From positions 10,205 to 74,204 of the forward strand of contig JAQUPG010000007.1 of NCBI GenBank assembly GCA_028716725.1: a stretch of DNA of 64,000 nucleotides, in the 5' to 3' direction. The notes beneath the pieces were generated by a model. That model had not been told where the DNA came from. It saw only the letters and a program-made list of their open reading frames with translations, and ran no database searches. Made by a program: the position numbers and the translations under genes. Source of the stretch: Patescibacteria group bacterium (GTDB taxonomy: Bacteria > Patescibacteriota > Patescibacteriia > Patescibacteriales > JAQTRU01). Numbering within the stretch: the stretch's first letter is position 1; every line of letters begins with the position of its first letter. Positions 6,694 to 47,136 of the stretch are shown in pieces.

Positions 6694-6715
6694 GGGGCAA
6701 TTCGCGAATTGCCCC
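6694..6715. repeat. 22-bp perfect palindrome ggggcaattcgcgaattgcccc just upstream of the -35
   Basis: Read directly. It lies between the peptide-gene terminator and the RR promoter. Confidence 0.85.
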
Positions 6716-6734: not shown

Positions 6735-6773
6735 TTTTAAAAAATTAAAAGGGGGGTATCTGCTAGATACCCC
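6735..6773 (-). terminator. Rho-independent terminator of the small peptide gene
   Basis: ggggtatct-gct-agatacccc (6753-6773), followed on the minus strand by ccttttaatttttt. Confidence 0.8.
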
Positions 6774-13111: not shown

Positions 13112-13181
13112 ATAATTTATTTAAAAATATTTTTTATCTTATTAAAATTTGCTATACCCCCTAGTTAGATTTCTAACGGGG
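13078..13181. repeat. Inverted repeat bracketing the start region of the PfkB kinase gene
   Basis: ccccattagaaat (13078-13090) versus atttctaacgggg (13169-13181). Same arm sequence as 7789-7902. The inner arm encodes NNKISNG of the kinase N-terminus. Confidence 0.75.
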
Positions 13182-22008: not shown

Positions 22009-22620
22009 TTAAATTCCGTATCCCTTCATCTCGCCCCGCACCATTTCGCGGTGTGGGGGCAAAAAGAAAAACCATCGGATGAACCGATGGTTTTCAGAAG
22101 CTGAAGTCCCTGAGTTGATAAAATCGTTTTTCTTTAAAATAATAAAGTAACCACGCTTTTCTGTCACCGGCGGTAACTCTTCATAAGGGAACGTCCCCAT
22201 GATTGTTATGATCACATCGCCGAGCATATTTGTTTCCATTTCCACTTCTATTTCATTACCCCGAATAAAACAAGTGGCAACAAAATAACCGCTGCCCAAA
22301 AATTTACCGCTCTTCCTATTGAGGTAGCCGGTAGAATCTATCACGGCGTAAGGGCAGCTGGACGAAATTTCTTTGGCTAAACTGAAAAGGTACTGATTGC
22401 TTAAAAAATTTGACTCTACCCGGATTTCTCCGCCGCCGTCAACAATAAAATATTTGACGGCAAGGTAATAAGTAACAACCGCGCTGTTATAGCTATAATC
22501 CTCCCCGCCGATAATCGGGCCAAGGCCCGGCCTCATTGATTTCCCGAGATGGCCACAACCAGCCAGAACCATAACTGCCAAAAAGATAATGGCAACCGAA
22601 ACTACAAAATGCTTTTTCAT
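22009..22620 (-). CDS. Hypothetical lipoprotein
   Basis: The start at MKKHFVVSVAIIFLAVMVLAGCGH has a lipobox (LAGC) and the SD gggggaggaagcc. The C-terminal tail is encoded by a hairpin element. Confidence 0.65.
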   Translation of the reverse strand: MKKHFVVSVAIIFLAVMVLAGCGHLGKSMRPGLGPIIGGEDYSYNSAVVTYYLAVKYFIVDGGGEIRVESNFLSNQYLFSLAKEISSSCPYAVIDSTGYLNRKSGKFLGSGYFVATCFIRGNEIEVEMETNMLGDVIITIMGTFPYEELPPVTEKRGYFIILKKNDFINSGTSASENHRFIRWFFFLPPHREMVRGEMKGYGI

Positions 22621-22721
22621 GGCTTCCTCCCCCTTGAATGAAAAAATGAACAATCCGTTTATATTAAAATCCAATATCTATTTACTTATTCTAAAATCTT
22701 AAATCTTAAATCTAAAATTAT

Positions 22722-23307: not shown

Positions 23308-24606
23308 TTATAACTCTCTAATTTTAACCCGGCGGCGCAAAACGCTATACTCCGGCACATTTCCGCTAACTTCCAAAATAACCACGTCTTCACTGCCTCC
23401 GCCATGCGCTTCTTTTATTTTTTCCCCGGTTTTAGCGTCTGCCATTCTTTTCAGCCTCATCTTTATTATATCATAACTTGGCCTTAAAATCTCAAGTTCG
23501 TCTCCGACTTTCATTGTGTTATGCGCTTTTACAAAAATCTTGCCCTTGCCATATTTCCTGTTTTTTATCACCTGCCCGCAGAATTCCCACTCCGGAATTT
23601 TGTGCGAATTATCAAGATTTTGGGCGGCTTTTCCTTCCCTAAACATAAAACCTTCGGTATAGCCCCGGTGATATAATTTTTCTTCCAGCTCTTCATATAA
23701 AAACTTCAGCTCATTGTTTTTTTGTTTTTTTGCTTGCCCCGCAAAGCCTTGGCGTAGTGGGGTTTTTTTGCTTTCTTGAATAACATCTATCGCCTTTCTG
23801 TAGGCCCCGACGACATTGGCCAAATAATAAACGCTCTTGGCCCGGCCTTCAATTTTAAAAGCGCTTATGCCCGCCTCAATCATCTCGGGCACTCTCTTTA
23901 TCAGGCACAAATCTTTAGAGTTTAAAATATAACTGCCGTTTTTTTCCTCGACCAACTCCAAAGTTTCGTGATTTTCCGCGGATATAAAATAATCCCAGCG
24001 GCAGGGCTGCGAGCAGTCGCCCAAATTAGCGTTCCGGTCATTAAAATACTTGGAAAGAAAGCACCGCCCGGAATAAGCCATGCATAAAGCCCCATGGATA
24101 AAACATTCCAGTTCCAGTTTTGGCACTCTTTTTTTTATTTCTTTTATTTCGGAAAGTTCTAATTCCCGGCTTAAGATTATTCTTTTTGCTCCCTGCTTAA
24201 GCCAAAAAATAGCAGCCTGCCAATTAGTGCAGTTGGCTTGCGTGCTTAAAATTATTTTTGCTTTAGGCCAGATTCTTTTTACCTCTCCTAAAACTGCCGG
24301 GTCGGAAATAAACAAACCGTCAACTCCGATTTTCTTTAATTTTTCTATGTGCCCTGGCAGTTTCTTTAAATGCTTATTGTGGGCAAAAATATTCACGGTC
24401 GCGTAAACTTTTTTCCCGATCTTGTGGGCGTATTTAGTCGCTTCATCAATTCCGGCTAAGGTAAAATCATTAACCCGGACGCGCAAAGAAAAATCCGGTA
24501 TGCCTAAATAAACCGCGTCTGCTCCAAAAGCAAAAGCGGTTTTCATTTTTTCTAGATTGCCAGCGGGCGCAATTAGTTCAGGTTTTATTTTAGTATTATT
24601 TTTCAT
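23308..24606 (-). CDS. Peptidase U32 family protein
   Basis: ELIAPAGNLEKMKTAFAFGADAVYLG and the ...E.F.HGALC... pattern of U32. Start taken at MKNNTKIKPE. Confidence 0.85.
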   Translation of the reverse strand: MKNNTKIKPELIAPAGNLEKMKTAFAFGADAVYLGIPDFSLRVRVNDFTLAGIDEATKYAHKIGKKVYATVNIFAHNKHLKKLPGHIEKLKKIGVDGLFISDPAVLGEVKRIWPKAKIILSTQANCTNWQAAIFWLKQGAKRIILSRELELSEIKEIKKRVPKLELECFIHGALCMAYSGRCFLSKYFNDRNANLGDCSQPCRWDYFISAENHETLELVEEKNGSYILNSKDLCLIKRVPEMIEAGISAFKIEGRAKSVYYLANVVGAYRKAIDVIQESKKTPLRQGFAGQAKKQKNNELKFLYEELEEKLYHRGYTEGFMFREGKAAQNLDNSHKIPEWEFCGQVIKNRKYGKGKIFVKAHNTMKVGDELEILRPSYDIIKMRLKRMADAKTGEKIKEAHGGGSEDVVILEVSGNVPEYSVLRRRVKIREL

Positions 24607-24772
24607 TTTGTACTTAATATTAATTTGCACAGCAGGTGTCTCGCCGAAGTTTTAACGAAGGCGGATCGGAGCAATCAGTTCCGGCTTTTTTATTTTCAAA
24701 CTTTTCATTATATTTTTCAACTAAAACAGCCCGTTGTCCGAGCTGTTTTATTTTAAATACTAACGTCTAATA

Positions 24773-25816: not shown

Positions 25817-25957
25817 AAAATCACCATGGGGTTCGGGGGCCGAACTGAGCGCCAGGGCGAGCATATCTAAAGATTAATCAACGTGATAGCGAATTGAGGC
25901 CCCCGAAACTTCCTGCCTGCCGGCAGGCAGGTTGCCTACTTTTGGTTACAAAAGTAA
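25817..25957. repeat. Structured intergenic repeat, copy A (~95-nt core plus palindrome plus hairpin tail)
   Basis: aaaatcaccatggggttcgggggccgaactgagcgccagggcgagcatatctaaagattaatc...gcgaattgaggcccccgaaactt is near-identical to 29015-29109. ttcgggggcc pairs with ggcccccgaa 60 nt away. The tail hairpin acttttg-gtta-caaaagt is shared. Confidence 0.85.
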
Positions 25958-26028
25958 GTCTTAGCGAAGCGTCTATCTCATCTACCTAATCTTATAAATA
26001 ATACAGCAATATTAGTATTATGTCAATT

Positions 26029-26910
26029 TTACCATGAACCGGAAGAACCTCCACCACCAGATCCGCCTCCGCCAAATCCGCCGAAACCGCCTCCGCCAAA
26101 TCCTCCCCCGCCCCCGCGCCCTCCGCCAATCCACCAGGGAATTGTGCCGCTGGCTTTATGTTTGGCATAGTTCTTCGAAACGATAAAATCAAACAATAGG
26201 CCAAAAGGAATTAAAATTACCAAAGAAACCAAGCCGAAAATAACAAAACCCTTTATTATTCCGATGATCACGCCGATTACTCCCCCAACAACTCCACCGG
26301 CCCACCAGGACTTGCTTCGGCCTAAGATGCTGGCCAGCCATATAACCGCGAAAAGCCCAAACCAAAAAATATTCTCCCAGGCCTGCGAACTTAGGACCTT
26401 AGCCGGTTCGCTTTCCGGAAGGTACTCGCCCTGCGTTGCCGCCATTATTTTATCAACTGCCTGGTCTATGCCTTGATAATATTTTTCCTGCCGAAAAGCC
26501 GGCTTCATTATATCGTTAATAATCCAGAAACTCTGGGCGTCGGTTAAAGCCCCTTCCAGACCATAACCTACTTCAATCCGCATTTTTCTATCTTCTTTAG
26601 CAACTAAAACTAAAATGCCGTTATCGTTTTTAGCTTTACCGATTTTCCAGTCTTCAAAAAGCCGGACGGCAAAATTTTCAATCGTATCCCCATCTAAACT
26701 CGGAATGATCACGACCGCGATTTCATTGCTTGTCTGGCTTTCAAAATTAACCAGTTTCGCTTCCAGACTCTGCCGCTGGCTCTCGCTCATCATCCCTGCA
26801 TAATCATTAACAAATCCAGCCGGCGTTCCCGGATTATAATAAGCCAAAGCCGGCATTGCCACAAACAATAACAATATAACCAATATTATCTTTTTCAATA
26901 ATTTAAACAT
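26029..26910 (-). CDS. TPM-domain protein (YgcG-like) with TM segments and a Gly-rich tail
   Basis: GFVNDYAGMMSESQRQSLEAKL...IAVVIIPSLDG...ILVLVAKEDRKMRIEVGYGLEG is the TPM signature. Confidence 0.9.
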   Translation of the reverse strand: MFKLLKKIILVILLLFVAMPALAYYNPGTPAGFVNDYAGMMSESQRQSLEAKLVNFESQTSNEIAVVIIPSLDGDTIENFAVRLFEDWKIGKAKNDNGILVLVAKEDRKMRIEVGYGLEGALTDAQSFWIINDIMKPAFRQEKYYQGIDQAVDKIMAATQGEYLPESEPAKVLSSQAWENIFWFGLFAVIWLASILGRSKSWWAGGVVGGVIGVIIGIIKGFVIFGLVSLVILIPFGLLFDFIVSKNYAKHKASGTIPWWIGGGRGGGGGFGGGGFGGFGGGGSGGGGSSGSW

Positions 26911-27678: not shown

Positions 27679-28725
27679 TTATATTATTTTAATATTTAAT
27701 TTCACAGTTTTCCCCCTTGCCTTGGTCGCATACCACCCCGTCAACAATCCCGCCATTTCCAAAATTTTTTCTTCATTTTTAATTTCATCCAGCTTCAATT
27801 CTCTAACATTAAACTTTTTCGGAATCTGTAATTCAAAATTTCGTAATTTGTAAATTTGTAAATTTGTAAATTTGTAAATTCTCACTATTGTGAGCGGCCC
27901 TATTACCTCTTCCAACTCCATTATTATATCACCCTTTTTAGCTAATTTCTCTAGCGTCTGGCACTCTTCTTTATTTCTGCCCATCACTATTAAAGTTTTT
28001 CCTCCTAGCCAAAAAATTCGGCCATGCTTTAATAACTCTATATCTTCCGGTCCGCATTCCGGCCAATTTTTTATCATCTCCCGAGCTCTTTGGCTAAAAA
28101 CCGGGTCAGTAAGTAAGCAGCCTCCGGCCGGAGAAGGATAGGTAAAACCGTACTTTTCCGCCAATTTCATCTGCTTTTCTCTTGTTCTGCCGCTTATATC
28201 TAATAATTTTTTTCTATTTACCAGTCTTTTTTTCTCAATTTCCGTTTCCGGCAAAGCTAAAGCTGATAAAGGCCGCAAAACTTCTATTCCAGCCAGCTTT
28301 TTAACTCTTTCTAAAGCTCCGCCATTTTGCGACATCGGCCTCTGCCCTAAAACTTCACCCGTGGCAATAAAGTCATAACCTCTCCCCCTTACTCCCCCTC
28401 TCCTAATTAGGAGAGGGGGCTGGGAGGTGAGGTATTCCCCGGCCCGCTTTATCATTAAGGCGTGGCAGTCAATGCAAGGATTTAAACATTTTCCATAACC
28501 CGAAGCCGGATTTTTTACCATCTCCAAATGCTCTTTTTTAAATTCTATTTTTTTAAATTCAATGCCTAATTGCTGCGCCGCTTTCTCGGCTTTGGCTGTT
28601 CCAAAAAAACAACTGGCAAAGCTAATCCCCGTCACTTCTATGCCCTGTTCCATTAAAATTTTTGCCGCCAGCATCGAGTCCAACCCGCCAGAAAGCAGCA
28701 CCAAAGCTTTTATCTTCTTCTTCAT
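27679..28725 (-). CDS. PP-loop ATP pyrophosphatase, ThiI/MnmA-like tRNA sulfurtransferase family
   Basis: PP-loop LLSGGLDSMLAA and NPCIDCH. It carries two in-frame repeat insertions (see repeats 27845 and 28394). Confidence 0.55.
   Translation of the reverse strand: MKKKIKALVLLSGGLDSMLAAKILMEQGIEVTGISFASCFFGTAKAEKAAQQLGIEFKKIEFKKEHLEMVKNPASGYGKCLNPCIDCHALMIKRAGEYLTSQPPLLIRRGGVRGRGYDFIATGEVLGQRPMSQNGGALERVKKLAGIEVLRPLSALALPETEIEKKRLVNRKKLLDISGRTREKQMKLAEKYGFTYPSPAGGCLLTDPVFSQRAREMIKNWPECGPEDIELLKHGRIFWLGGKTLIVMGRNKEECQTLEKLAKKGDIIMELEEVIGPLTIVRIYKFTNLQIYKLRNFELQIPKKFNVRELKLDEIKNEEKILEMAGLLTGWYATKARGKTVKLNIKII
27845..27879. repeat. In-frame heptamer array (AATTTGT)x5 inside the PP-loop ATPase gene
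   Basis: Read directly. It encodes ...IYKFTNLQIYKLRNFELQ... on the minus strand. Confidence 0.85.
28394..28419. repeat. 26-nt perfect G+C-rich palindrome embedded in-frame in the PP-loop ATPase gene
   Basis: ccccctctcctaattaggagaggggg. It encodes PPLLIRRGG within the Pro/Gly/Arg-rich stretch TSQPPLLIRRGGVRGRG. Confidence 0.9.
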
Positions 28726-28988: not shown

Positions 28989-29014
28989 ATTAAAATTTTC
29001 CAATCAACTATTTT

Positions 29015-29135
29015 AAAATCACCATGGGGTTCGGGGGCCGAACTGAGCGCCAAGGCGAGCATATCCAAAGATTAATCCAGGGACTAGCGAATTGAGGCCC
29101 CCGAAACTTTTGGTTACTTTTGGTTACAAAAGTAA
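29015..29135. repeat. Structured intergenic repeat, copy B
   Basis: Same core as 25817-25911, with a few substitutions outside the 10-bp clamp. The tail has a duplicated acttttggtt before the shared hairpin. Confidence 0.85.
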
Positions 29136-29180
29136 CTCGCTGAAAGCGAAACTTTCCTGGCACCAACAACTCAAATATTT

Positions 29181-32105
29181 TTAACGTTTCTCTACGCGTA
29201 AAACAATTTCCTCTCCATTAATCTTCACCTTCTTGCCCTCACCGCCAGCGCGTATTTCATCAGCCAAAGTATCTTTCTTTATTTCTTCGCCAAATTTCTC
29301 AAAAACTTCTTTTATTTCTTTATTCTTCGTTTCGTAATAAATCACGGCTCTGTCTTGAATAGTCATCCCGGTTTCTTTGCGCAAATTATTTATCGCCCGC
29401 ACCAGTTCCCGTTTTACACCTTCTTGCACTAATTCCGGCGTCATTTTTGTATCCAGCTCAACTGTCAATTCTTTCCCTTCAACAAATTTCACTTCCTTCA
29501 CGTTTAGTTCATCTTTTATAAGTTCTCCATATTCTTTTGGTAATTCGTAATTCGTAATTCGTAATTCGCTAAGCGGTTGTCGCACTTTTATCCCGGATTG
29601 ATCCCGTTTACCTAACCCCATCTCCACAATCTTTCTCACCACTTCCATTTTCTCTAAAACCTTCTCATCAATCCATTCTTTCTTCACATCAGCCCATTCT
29701 TTAAGATGCACTGATTCAACATCTGCGCCCAATTCCTGATAAATATGTTCAGCCATAAAGGGCATAAACGGCGCCATAATCCGCGCCAAATGATACAAAG
29801 TCCGGCGCAAAATTTTTAACGCCCGCATTTTGTCAACTTCATCATCGCCTTTGAAGCGGTCTCTGGACCGGCGGACATACCAGGTTGATAAATCGTTTAT
29901 AAAAATCGGAATTTCGCGAATGGCCTGCAAATCATAATTATCCATTTTTTCCGTTACCACTTTTTTAGTCTCTTCCAAACGTGAAGTTATCCATTTATCT
30001 AGAATATTAACTAAATCTTTTTTCTCTAAATTTTCAATCTTTAAATCAGTGGCAAACATCTTATAGAAAGATAGAACATTGAGTAAAATATTAAAAAATC
30101 TGGTTTGCTCCGCCATATCTTTCTCGGAAAAATTTATGTTGTCGGCCTTCATTACCGGCGAAGCGCAAAGATAATAGCGCAAAGGATCAGCCCCGTACTT
30201 ATCCATTACTTCCATCGGGTCAGGATAATTCTTAAGCCGCTTAGACATCTTTTTTCCGTCTTCGGCCAAAACTATGCCGTTAACAATAACATTCTTAAAA
30301 GCGTGGCTTTTCTTTATTCCGGTGGCAATGGCGTGCAGATAATAAAACCAAGCCCTTGTCTGGTCAACGCCCTCGGCAATAAATTCGGCCGGAAAATTGG
30401 CTTCAAATTTTTTCTTATTCTCAAACGGATAATGCATTTGCGCGTAGGGCATTGACCCGGACTCAAACCAGCAATCTATCACATCCGGAATGCGTTTCAT
30501 AACTCCCCCGCATTTGCAGGCAAAAGTAATTTTATCTACCACATGCTTATGCAGATCCGTAATTTTTTGTTTGCTCAATTTTTCCAGTTCCTCAACCGAG
30601 CCAATCACTTTTCTTTCTCCGCAAGCACATTCCCAAATCGGAATAGCCGAAGCCCAATATCTCTGCCGCGAAATTGACCAGTCCCGCGCCCCTTCCAGCC
30701 AGTTGCCAAACCGGCCTTCTTTAATATGAGCCGGCACCCAGTTTATTTTCTTGGCCAATTTCAGCATTTTCGATTTTATTTTCGTAATCTTAACAAACCA
30801 GGAAGAAGTGGCGTAATTAAGAAGCGGGGTTTCGCAACGCCAGCAATGCGGATAGCTGTGCTCATATTTTTCCTTAGAAAATAAAAATCCCTTACCATCC
30901 AGATATTTCTTAATTTCCTCATCGGTTTTCATAACGTCCTCGGCTGGTTTAACATGTAGGCCGGCAAAATCCTTTGCTTCTTCTTTAATAATTCCGTCCA
31001 TGCCAACGTGCTGAACAAATGGTAAATTTTTCTCTTTGCCCAAATTCATATCATCCTCGCCAAAAGCCGGGGCAATATGAACTATGCCTGTTCCTTCTTC
31101 GGTTGTTACAAAATCCGCGGCATAAACTTTCCACCCGTTTTCTCTATTTCCTAATTTTTCATCAGAAGAATAATAACCAAATAATGGCCTATATTTTTTA
31201 CCGACTAAATTTTTTCCTTTTAGGGGTCTCGCTTTTTTAGTATAATCTTTTTCTGCAATTTCGGGATAAAATTTTAATGTATCTTGCACTCTATCTAAAG
31301 CTAAGATGTAAGATTCTCCACTCTTTTCTTCTCTAATTTTTATATAGTTAATATCTTCGCCCACTGCCAAAGCAACATTACCAATCAAAGTCCATGGGGT
31401 GGTAGTCCATGCCAAAAGATATGTTCCCGGTTCGTCTTCCAGTTCAAACTTAACGGTCACGGATAAATCTTTAACTATCTTATACCCTTCCGCCACTTCT
31501 GATTGCGATAAAGTGGTTTCGCATCTGGGGCAGATATGCATTGACCGATAATCTTTATAAATCAACTCCTTATCCCAAAGCTCTTTAAACACCCACCAAA
31601 CAGACTCCATATAATCTAAGTCCATGGTCTTATAAGCGTTTTCCATATCCACCCACCGGCCCATTCTTCTTACGGTTTTCTCCCATTCTTTGGCATAAAC
31701 CAAAACTTTGCTTCGGCATTGTTCGTTAAATTTTTCCACCCCGATTTCTTCAATATCTTTCTTGCTTTTAGTCTTCATCTCCTTTTCCACGATATTTTCA
31801 ATCGGCAAGCCATGGCAGTCCCAACCCCATCTGCGCTCTATCCGATAGCCCTTCATCGTCCAGTACCGCGGCACAATATCTTTCATTAAACTAGCCACAA
31901 TATGCCCATAATGCGGCGTACCGGTCGCAAACGGCGGCCCGTCATAGAAAACATAATCCTTTCTACCCCCTTGAAAAAGGGGGCTAGGGGGATTATTTAC
32001 GGATTTTTCAAAAATTTTATTTTTCTCCCAAAAATTCAAAACCTCCTCTTCCATAGCCGGCCAGGAGCTCTTTCTATCTATATTTTTATCCTTTTCTTTC
32101 ACCAT
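29181..32105 (-). CDS. ileS: Isoleucyl-tRNA synthetase
   Basis: HIGH motif PHYGH, KMSKS motif KMSKRL, CP1 editing region, 974 aa. Confidence 0.95.
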   Translation of the reverse strand: MVKEKDKNIDRKSSWPAMEEEVLNFWEKNKIFEKSVNNPPSPLFQGGRKDYVFYDGPPFATGTPHYGHIVASLMKDIVPRYWTMKGYRIERRWGWDCHGLPIENIVEKEMKTKSKKDIEEIGVEKFNEQCRSKVLVYAKEWEKTVRRMGRWVDMENAYKTMDLDYMESVWWVFKELWDKELIYKDYRSMHICPRCETTLSQSEVAEGYKIVKDLSVTVKFELEDEPGTYLLAWTTTPWTLIGNVALAVGEDINYIKIREEKSGESYILALDRVQDTLKFYPEIAEKDYTKKARPLKGKNLVGKKYRPLFGYYSSDEKLGNRENGWKVYAADFVTTEEGTGIVHIAPAFGEDDMNLGKEKNLPFVQHVGMDGIIKEEAKDFAGLHVKPAEDVMKTDEEIKKYLDGKGFLFSKEKYEHSYPHCWRCETPLLNYATSSWFVKITKIKSKMLKLAKKINWVPAHIKEGRFGNWLEGARDWSISRQRYWASAIPIWECACGERKVIGSVEELEKLSKQKITDLHKHVVDKITFACKCGGVMKRIPDVIDCWFESGSMPYAQMHYPFENKKKFEANFPAEFIAEGVDQTRAWFYYLHAIATGIKKSHAFKNVIVNGIVLAEDGKKMSKRLKNYPDPMEVMDKYGADPLRYYLCASPVMKADNINFSEKDMAEQTRFFNILLNVLSFYKMFATDLKIENLEKKDLVNILDKWITSRLEETKKVVTEKMDNYDLQAIREIPIFINDLSTWYVRRSRDRFKGDDEVDKMRALKILRRTLYHLARIMAPFMPFMAEHIYQELGADVESVHLKEWADVKKEWIDEKVLEKMEVVRKIVEMGLGKRDQSGIKVRQPLSELRITNYELPKEYGELIKDELNVKEVKFVEGKELTVELDTKMTPELVQEGVKRELVRAINNLRKETGMTIQDRAVIYYETKNKEIKEVFEKFGEEIKKDTLADEIRAGGEGKKVKINGEEIVLRVEKR
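29542..29569. repeat. In-frame heptamer array (TAATTCG)x4 inside ileS
   Basis: Read directly. It encodes ...SELRITNYELPKEY... on the minus strand. Confidence 0.9.
31966..31983. repeat. Perfect G+C-rich hairpin embedded in-frame near the ileS 5' end
   Basis: ccccctt-gaaa-aaggggg, followed by ctaggggg. It encodes part of NNPPSPLFQGGRKD just upstream of the HIGH region. Confidence 0.85.
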
Positions 32106-43234: not shown

Positions 43235-43311
43235 AATAATTATAATTTGTCCCGCCACTTTATTATATTTATTGTGGGCGGGATCCCGCCGAAGCGGTGA
43301 TAAATTAGTAA

Positions 43312-47096: not shown

Positions 47097-47136
47097 CCCC
47101 ACACCTAATATTTATATATAAATATTAGGTGTGGGG
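47097..47136. terminator. 40-nt perfect palindrome right after the sugar-transferase stop (putative terminator)
   Basis: ccccacacctaatatttata|tataaatattaggtgtgggg. Read directly. Confidence 0.7.

Follow-up and report, generated by a model that had tools for sequence, protein, structure and literature searches.

Dispersed G+C-rich hairpin repeats in and between genes of a Patescibacteria contig

We analysed a 64,000-nt stretch of DNA (hereafter the window) from a Patescibacteria group bacterium (GenBank assembly GCA_028716725.1, contig JAQUPG010000007.1, positions 10,205 to 74,204), with a focus on short G+C-rich palindromes carried by three of its genes: a PP-loop ATPase gene, the isoleucyl-tRNA synthetase gene (ileS) and a U32 gene. 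The window has a G+C content of ~40% and is ~92% coding, with nearly all genes on the minus strand. The three genes and their elements are as follows.

23308-24630, minus strand: U32 gene
23732-23766, minus strand: U32 island, an LRQG-type unit (sense strand AAAACCCCACTACGCCAAGGCTTTGCGGGGCAAGC), a weakly palindromic insert of ~11 amino acids
27679-28725, minus strand: PP-loop ATPase gene (ThiI/MnmA-like) with a C-terminal NFACT-R_2-like domain, assigned by Pfam
28378-28433, minus strand: F1, a 56-nt two-tier hairpin element, a palindromic triplex motif (TM) on both strands
28394-28419, no strand assigned: F1 core, a 26-nt perfect palindrome CCCCCTCTCCTAATTAGGAGAGGGGG (26-mer) with a 13-bp stem and no loop
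29181-32105, minus strand: IleS, isoleucyl-tRNA synthetase, assigned by Pfam
31963-31997, minus strand: F2, a 35-nt unit, sense strand AATAAT-CCCCC-TAG-CCCCCTT-TTTC-AAGGGGG-TAG

The PP-loop protein matches the tRNA_Me_trans HUP domain, ThiI and NFACT-R_2 in Pfam, and is 100% identical to an NCBI protein from a metagenome-assembled genome (MAG) that bears the name ThiI. The closest named relatives of IleS are Falkowbacteria, at ~70% identity. An earlier sequence-only reading had treated all three hosts as essential genes, which surely applies to IleS and less surely to the PP-loop and U32 genes. The same reading had described an in-frame perfect palindrome encoding PPLLIRRGG in the PP-loop gene and a hairpin ahead of the HIGH motif in ileS. 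The former agrees with both the sequence and the translation of the open reading frame (ORF), and the latter is also correct, the motif being HYGH in this protein.

The flagged 26-mer is no more than the core of the 56-nt F1, whose sense strand is ACCTCACCTCC-CAG-(26-mer)-AGTAA-GGGGGAGAGGT. The translation around it runs ...YLTSQPPLLIRRGGVRGRGYDF..., ...AGEYLTSQPPLLIRRGGVRGRGYDFIATGEV..., and the insert corresponds approximately to residues 97-116 of the protein. F1 is predicted to fold with -18.4 kcal/mol as DNA (z -3.3) and -38.9 kcal/mol as RNA (z -3.7). Within F2, the hairpin at 31966-31983 (CCCCCTTGAAAAAGGGGG; 7-bp stem, 4-nt loop) encodes NNPPSPLFQGGRKD, residues 37-50 of IleS, upstream of the HYGH motif; on the plus strand F2 reads as the triplex motif CCCCCTT-GAAA-AAGGGGG-CTA-GGGGGAT. 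At 23735-23765 the U32 island (CCCCGCAAAGCCTTGGCGTAGTGGGG, encoding TPLRQGFAGQAKK) starts with C4 and ends with G4, as had been noted, and proved to be an insert and a dispersed unit; its pairing is imperfect, however, so it is not a clean palindrome.

When compared with 40 dinucleotide shuffles of the window, perfect hairpins with a stem of at least 10 bp were in excess (10 versus 2.0 +/- 1.3, maximum 4), as were perfect hairpins started by CCCC (3 versus 0.7 +/- 0.75). This excess in a single window is modest, and the decision therefore rests on comparative data, namely presence or absence in orthologs and near-identical copies elsewhere. Those data place the palindromes beyond what composition would give, as members of families dispersed in other genes and spacers. 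A scan of the window for G+C-rich islands returned mainly normal Gly/Ala/Pro coding sequence and was uninformative. The sequence-only reading had stressed insertion into ORFs; in the window, however, ~8 of the ~11 C/G-bounded palindromes lie in the non-coding 8% of the window and ~3 in coding DNA. Such a ~30-fold depletion within genes is expected where most coding insertions get lost.

Filled and empty sites in orthologous genes

At the PP-loop locus we aligned the window protein with 119 orthologs, one more database match being identical to the query. The loop that carries F1 has a short form (e.g. AGE-IAKKEG-YDF) in 53 of the 120 sequences and at least 12 residues in 63 of them, from a base of 6-7. 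Four syntenic relatives (L001-L004) share 82-88% amino-acid identity with the window over four genes. In L001, L002 and L003 the site is empty and reads GAA ATA GCA AAA AAA GAA GGT TAT GAC, i.e. GAA-ATAGCAAAAAAAGAAGGT-TATGAC, while the filled site of the window and L004 reads GAA T-ACCTCACCTCC-CAG-(26-mer)-AGTAA-GGGGGAGAGGT TAT GAC. The insert, missing from three of the four close relatives, thus places 57 nt where 18 stood, which lengthens the gene by 39 nt (13 codons). F1 is identical between the window and L004 at 55 of 56 positions, compared with 80.0% for the remaining gene (binomial P = 5.7e-5). A recombination tract around the insert was considered and rejected, since in the flanks the identity of the window to L004 does not exceed its identity to L001. 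The F1 core is intact in PP-loop orthologs of 57-59% identity. At the same site the right spacer of F1 contains further, nested hairpins in L144 and L145, and the copies of L146 and L147 have decayed.

The PP-loop orthologs of L003 (10001-11077) and L004 (443-1651) have a second insert near query residue 243. It consists of an A+T-rich ACGAA-type repeat read as ERINTKENTRMGRIKTK..., a dispersed unit unlike the G+C-rich hairpins.

In IleS the insert spans P39-R48 and adds 6 to 8 amino acids at a position where solved IleRS structures have a 6-residue gap. The loop measures 8 amino acids or fewer in 89 of 118 orthologs and at least 12 residues in 23, with a base of 6-7. The site is empty in L002 (GAAAAAGGCAAAAAGGAT) and filled by one or two units in the window, L001, L003 and L130, L001 being 27 nt longer than L002. 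Tandem arrangements comprise two units in L130 and L003 and, in the protein alignment, three in P0122. Nesting occurs here as well: a copy of F3, another palindrome family (CCTGCCTGCC/GGCAGGCAGG), lies within the C run of the L003 IleS element (CC-CCTGCCTACCGGACAGGCAGG-CCCC, versus CCCCCC in L130), where it adds 21 nt and keeps the frame. The F2 unit AATAATCCCCCTAGCCCCCTTTTTCAAGGGGGTAG is identical at 33 of 34 positions to a unit of L190 that occupies the PP-loop site (peptide NNPPSPLCQGG), and F2-related units were also found in spacers of L125.

Much larger insertions were seen in IleS of other Patescibacteria (P0148, P0181, P0185, P0203, P0224, P0230 and P0239, as well as P0187 and P0237), which carry whole inserted domains, either a histidine phosphatase (PF00300) near query residues 507-533 or a NUDIX domain (PF00293) near 222-322.

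The U32 insert is present in the window and L002, whereas L001 and the nearest representative, P0241, have ~11 residues fewer in what is a variable linker; a search of solved structures for U32 gave no match. IleS of L130 contains an insert of a related unit, TRLRQGSGGQGG. In the ortholog alignments all three flagged segments are insertions that fall in gaps of most orthologs and match no conserved residues, as had been predicted.

Insert lengths differ throughout by multiples of three, nested additions included. Two frames of the 26-mer contain stops, and the third, open one is used in all four of its gene contexts, which were identified through homology on both sides. Frame preservation and the use of the open frame favour translation over excision or bypassing, and no splice-like or take-off/landing signals were seen at the coding copies. 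Judged from these reading frames, the elements are probably translated as additional peptide segments. In the AlphaFold model of the PP-loop protein (mean pLDDT 89.4), values below 50 occur only at residues 108-114, between helix 84-96 and strand 119-122. The IleS model (mean pLDDT 85.8) averages 54 over residues 41-50, with residues 45-47 below 50, and places the insert between helix 31-37 and strand 52-53. Both inserts are thus modelled as low-confidence loops that appear to be tolerated between confident secondary-structure elements.

The PP-loop site behaves as a hot spot. F1-type inserts in orthologs of 55-78% identity share the same junctions (E|Y-L-T...G|Y or N), and the insert-bearing orthologs are scattered among empty alleles in a neighbour-joining tree. 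The five closest genomes form a star-like phylogeny that lends no support to a clade of the window and L004, through which one recent gain might account for both. The empty alleles retain the ancestral IAKKEG. These data suggest either that the site has gained inserts repeatedly, or that gene conversion or a long-lived polymorphism is involved. Moreover, the same loop is occupied by other families, F2 included, in other lineages. The empty sites of both PP-loop and IleS genes are sense-strand homopurine tracts that end in GG (GCAAAAAAAGAAGG and GAAAAAGGCAAAAAGG), and the C-rich arm stands at the sense-strand 5' end in all seven coding contexts. These two features would fit a preference for purine tracts, which in these genes would correspond to Lys/Glu/Gly codons of surface loops.

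Dispersed families and the triplex-motif layout

The exact F1 26-mer was found on 19 low-G+C contigs in a scan of JGI metagenomes. Its contexts include the PP-loop site, TsaD (...KTDLTPRPPLLIRRGGGAKRRRRGFGIDAIAVT...), PBP2 (...REYLTPQPPLLIRRGGEGGEVRSS...), a glycosyltransferase family 2 (GT2) gene and ~10 spacers. Nearly all of these contigs also carry outer arms, with ACCTCACCCCC 3-4 nt upstream and/or GGGGG(T/A)GAGG 3-5 nt downstream, and the ACCTCACCCCC flank is conserved across phyla. When the F1 stem was allowed any loop, a scan of one genome per species gave at least 120 loci. The hosts are Dehalococcoidia and other Chloroflexi, Bacteroidales, Ignavibacteria, Cyanobacteria, Melainabacteria, Thiotrichales, Latescibacterota, Patescibacteria and one Bathyarchaeia MAG; the family is also present on 42 viral contigs of IMG/VR. 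Among the matches listed, the conserved flank is one-sided in 98 of 128 genome-scan copies, and ~24 of 128 copies outside the candidate phyla radiation (CPR) are spanned by an ORF. Relative to the flanking genes, the copies outside CPR show no orientation bias (20 in +,+ versus 18 in -,- settings), which argues for a process at the DNA level over one acting on strand-specific RNA. Rfam at gathering thresholds returned only tRNAs for the window and 14 element-bearing loci, and F1 is therefore no curated RNA family.

Several loci show additional structure around or beside the F1 hairpin. L010, L011, L021, L030, L036 and many other Dehalococcoidia loci carry it within a longer composite, which in Dehalococcoidia consists of a hairpin AAGAGGGGC-GAA-GCCCCTCTT, ~10 nt, the F1 hairpin, GGGGGTGAGGT and then AGATAAACAATCTC. 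This arrangement suggests a larger repeat unit in that group. A role of GGGGGTGAGGT as a start-codon or Shine-Dalgarno signal was rejected, as ATG follows a few viral copies and does not do so in general. In L131, TsaD has, in addition to the F1 insert, a tandem QITNSK/SQIPNK repeat insertion, which divides its Pfam match into three stretches.

The layout of F1 and F2 was examined with a triplex-motif scan. It required a hairpin with a stem of 6-15 nt, one pyrimidine and one purine arm and a short loop, followed 1-6 nt downstream of the purine arm by a second purine block that mirrors it with at most one mismatch. Exactly two loci of the window fit, F1 (28378-28433) and F2 (31966-31993), both within genes, compared with none in 20 shuffles. 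Their stems measure 10-13 and 7 bp, respectively. On the sense strand F1 has an 11-nt stem, a mirror of 11/11 and a 5-nt second loop, with one mismatch on the antisense strand; F2 has a 7/7 mirror and a 3-nt spacer on the plus strand. The U32 island, F3 and F4 (TCCCGC...GCGGGA) lack the mirror block. The F1 flank GGGGG(T/A)GAGG(T) is the mirror image of the adjoining purine arm AGGAGAGGGGG, and other stems in the loci compared follow the same rule (AGGGGAAGGGGG then GGGGGATAGGGT; AAGGAGAAGGG then GGGATGAGGTT; AAAGGGGGA then AGGGGGATT). Across 40 stem groups the mirror score was 0.89 with a group's own flank and 0.78 with the flanks of other groups, being higher in 34 of 40 (p = 1.3e-7), under lenient scoring, with non-independent groups and with loci that had been picked for F1.

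By these sequence criteria, F1 and F2 can be assigned to the G/C-rich intrastrand triplex motif repeats known as BoxC, PIT or TM (Holder et al. 2015, PMC4666352). These repeats have their parts in the same order, a hairpin whose C-rich arm precedes the loop and whose G-rich arm follows it, then a spacer of 3-5 nt and a mirroring G-rich block, and the same mirror pairing (G.G-C, A.A-T and T.A-T). Thousands of copies exist in Proteobacteria, and they are abundant in Microcystis, Anabaena and Nostoc; single-stranded DNA of these repeats forms a stable triplex in vitro, none has been demonstrated in vivo, and local sequence variability is raised around them (PMC4666352). No association with transposons, phages or plasmids and no promoter or terminator activity were reported (PMC4666352). 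As in our set, they include 'palindromic' doubles and show no strand bias, no transposase is known, and local indels are linked to them; their copies are highly similar and dispersed, a feature that our set shows across sequence collections. The E. coli consensus (TM-ECO), CCCTCNCCC-N3-6-GGGNGAGGG-N3-GGGNGAGGG, is not matched, however. The elements described here have C5/G5-run stems CCCCCTCTCC/GGAGAGGGGG with GGGGG(T/A)GAGG, or CCCCCTT/AAGGGGG, a motif related to TM-ECO with the same layout in another register. Furthermore, the E. coli copies are reported to be exclusively intergenic and to be missing from phages (PMC4666352), whereas both window copies lie in coding sequence and the F1 family occurs on viral contigs. 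What appears to be new for the class is the phylum and the translated context. The literature that we covered, which is incomplete and makes this a weak negative, holds no report of the class in Patescibacteria or of its translation in frame, and within the same incomplete coverage we found no description of same-site recurrence and nesting for such repeats.

The sequence-only reading had likened the inserts to Rickettsia palindromic elements (RPE). The likeness holds in that RPE, too, are palindromes that interrupt conserved genes without loss of frame and contribute an extra peptide compatible with the fold, with both coding and non-coding occurrences and decaying copies (PMC10969869); the coding copies here are likewise in frame, stop-free and located in low-confidence loops. 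Kinship with RPE does not hold. RPE measure ~100-150 bp, comprise ten families and are known from Rickettsia, whereas the elements of this work measure 18-57 nt, have G/C-run clamps and a triplex-motif architecture, and include a family that crosses phyla; the two are set apart on the basis of these descriptions.

Repetitive extragenic palindromic (REP) sequences and REPINs, mobilised by REP-associated tyrosine transposases (RAYT), resemble our elements as dispersed 20-40-nt palindromes that are mainly extragenic and make no target duplications. The heads of REP are GTAG or CGTC (PMC3733652), while those found here are C runs or ACCTC/ACCTCAC. A further difference is that copies here would be translated inside genes. 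A search for a RAYT (Y1 HUH) transposase gave none in 10 ORFs of the window and none that recurs beside the listed loci. Three filled/empty pairs (a window spacer repeat, the nested F3 of L003 versus L130, and IleS of L001 versus L002) show no target-site duplication of the type made by miniature inverted-repeat transposable elements (MITE). No parent insertion sequence with the same ends was seen at element-bearing loci, in an analysis that included no genome-wide search for one. Comparable G+C-rich mini-palindromes of A+T-rich genomes are the mitochondrial GC clusters, the Neurospora PstI palindromes, the double-hairpin and bypass elements and the small dispersed repeats of cyanobacteria. 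As here, they nest in one another and occasionally insert into genes in frame. They differ in being organellar or cyanobacterial and of other sequences, and some are bypassed rather than translated. To our knowledge, a mirror flank has not been described for the mitochondrial, Neurospora or cyanobacterial mini-palindromes.

Origin of the repeats and competing explanations

The flagged sequences are probably copies of several families of tiny, non-autonomous G+C-rich hairpin repeats dispersed in Patescibacteria, F1 and F2 being of the BoxC/PIT/TM type, which insert, survive in permissive loops and are read through. Behind this explanation stand family membership, presence and absence among orthologs, the kept frame, the location in loops, the excess conservation and the nesting, all of which were observed directly. 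Recent activity is suggested by the F3 palindrome found in just one of two paralogous spacer repeats, by the F3 copy nested in L003, by the near-identity of F1 between the window and L004 and by the decayed copies of L146 and L147. We infer that the elements are nearly neutral and spread by a process at the DNA level, in which copies at new sites would arise without target duplication and with insertion junctions in A-rich purine tracts beside GG. Within genes, the survivors would be those copies that fall in an open frame and in permissive surface loops; they would be transcribed and translated as Pro/Leu...Arg/Gly peptides, and could later stay intact or decay, attracting nested palindromes. 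Mobilisation might proceed through replication that stalls at the structure and resumes by template switching or is followed by microhomology-mediated repair; alternatively, a single-strand (HUH-type) transposase might act in trans.

Several observations weigh against dispersal of this kind. The 64-kb window holds only one copy of F1 and one of F2. Pfam identified no transposase among 10 unassigned or plus-strand ORFs of the window, and no recurrent neighbour that might be a mobilising gene was found around the 120 loci (among the matches listed), just syntenic housekeeping genes. Recurrence at the same junctions is unexpected under random transposition and calls for a site preference, gene conversion or an old polymorphism, and the PP-loop insert replaces 15-18 nt in place of being a simple addition. 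Selection on structure, and not recency, could be the cause of the excess conservation seen in the element and, across phyla, in its flank. The limits of the mirror-covariation test given above count on the same side.

It is possible, if doubtful, that triplex-motif hairpins are an actively spreading, cross-phylum and also viral class whose insertion is directed by nucleic-acid structure and not by a transposase. A purine third strand or the microhomology of G runs would then target homopurine tracts, which in A+T-rich genomes would be the Lys/Glu/Gly codons of surface loops. Insertion of this sort would explain the repeated use of the same PP-loop codon by separate lineages, the single orientation of the seven coding contexts and the tolerance of the inserts.

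It is improbable that the hairpins are functional mRNA or DNA structures under selection, e.g. for pausing, transcript stabilisation or factor binding, and adaptive in their genes. The near-identity of F1 (55/56) in a host gene of 80% identity, the intact core in orthologs of 57-59% identity, the ACCTCACCCCC flank kept across phyla, the mirror covariation of stem and flank and the very stable RNA hairpin (-38.9 kcal/mol) would all fit such a role. However, presence is patchy among genomes of 82-88% identity, decay is under way in the copies of L146 and L147, and one and the same loop is filled by unrelated families depending on the lineage. In addition, the elements sit at variable loops of their hosts, copies outside CPR are not oriented with respect to genes, and BoxC/PIT repeats are reported to have neither promoter nor terminator activity, with no triplex found in vivo (PMC4666352). 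We give still less credence to the view that the segments are ancient protein loops of particular lineages, the result of a single gain and vertical descent, in which the peptide matters and palindromy is incidental. The identical insert junctions of distant PP-loop orthologs speak for such loops, and the star-like phylogeny of the five genomes leaves room for a single gain in an ancestor of the window and L004. Yet the same nucleotide units recur in spacers and in genes that are unrelated to one another. What is conserved is the DNA, down to the perfect complementarity of the arms, and not the peptide, and the peptides are disordered in the AlphaFold models. Moreover, insert-bearing sequences are scattered among empty ones in the tree, and deletion of an insert cannot regenerate the ancestral IAKKEG of the empty alleles.

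CPR bacteria excise insertions from rRNA, and a very stable hairpin within a coding region brings to mind both this and the bypass of hairpins in yeast mitochondria. On either model the elements would be lost before they reach the protein, cut out of the message in the one case and passed over by the ribosome in the other. This is very unlikely, given that each coding copy is in frame and stop-free even though the 26-mer offers just one open frame, that nested additions also come in multiples of three, and that the coding copies show no splice-like or take-off/landing signals. Snap-back synthesis can create palindromes and MAGs are error-prone, so the palindromes might also be assembly or sequencing artefacts or products of local template switching without transfer between sites. 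There is next to no likelihood of this, as the same insert is present in independent NCBI, JGI and ENA assemblies, units of 34-56 nt are near-identical across genes and genomes, and no insert is an inverted copy of its own flanks.

In-frame triplex-motif hairpins join two separate literatures, one on the protein-coding palindromes of Rickettsia and the other on BoxC/PIT repeats. Inserts lengthen many Patescibacteria proteins, as the counts of long loops in the PP-loop (63/120) and IleS (23/118) orthologs illustrate. They give spurious low-complexity peptides in databases and may introduce errors when CPR proteins are aligned, placed in phylogenies or modelled in structure. Filled and empty sites, nesting and recurrence at the same site are material for studying how hairpin repeats without a transposase move. 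Should structure-directed spreading be true, it would supply Patescibacteria proteins with new surface loops in a systematic way.

Other palindromes and repeats of the window

The window contains further palindromes, to which no strand is assigned.

13158-13181: imperfect C4...G4 hairpin in a spacer
22034-22058: hairpin CCCCGCACC...GGTGTGGGG with arms as in 47097-47136, at the 3' end of ORF 22009-22674
25912-25931: F3, a 20-nt perfect palindrome CCTGCCTGCCGGCAGGCAGG, inserted in one copy of a ~125-nt spacer repeat
43277-43290: palindrome GGCGGGATCCCGCC, intergenic; its core also occurs in frame in SecA of L003 and between genes in L002
45691-45710: second copy of F3, CCTGCCTACCGGCAGGCAGG, with one arm mismatch, intergenic
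47097-47136: 40-nt perfect palindrome CCCCACACC...GGTGTGGGG with an AT-rich centre, intergenic, directly 3' of a sugar-transferase gene

The hairpins at 13158-13181 and 22034-22058 had been said to share the C/G boundaries of the coding elements. Their ends are indeed C4...G4, but a bulge or mismatch interrupts each. The latter adjoins a terminator-like hairpin at 22068-22094. F3 and F4 are plain G+C-rich palindromes that among relatives occur in spacers and also in frame in genes.

The ~125-nt spacer repeat has two copies in the window, 25817-25960 and 29013-29145, which are 93% identical. F3 stands at CTT|TTG of the former. The latter lacks it, and so do L001 and L130, whose orthologous spacers have other small palindromes instead. 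The repeat, read on the minus strand in the window, lies upstream of the NIF3-like and DUF3850 genes and is also found in these orthologous spacers, at L001 13513-13626 and L130 3522-3674. It contains a long-range stem UUCGGGGGCC...GGCCCCCGAA, with an RNA minimum free energy of -43.3 kcal/mol (z -2.8), and has no Rfam match; candidate identities are a leader RNA and a MITE-like repeat.

Two palindromes of reverse polarity (GGGG...CCCC), 6694-6715 and 6753-6773, lie together in a 160-nt spacer flanked by a response-regulator gene and an unassigned ORF. Lastly, the gene at 26029-26910 is an ortholog of the TPM-phosphatase-domain genes of L002 and L003, and its protein ends in a long Gly/Phe tail (GGGRGGGGGFGGGGFGGFGGGGSGGGGSSGSW) whose length varies among relatives.

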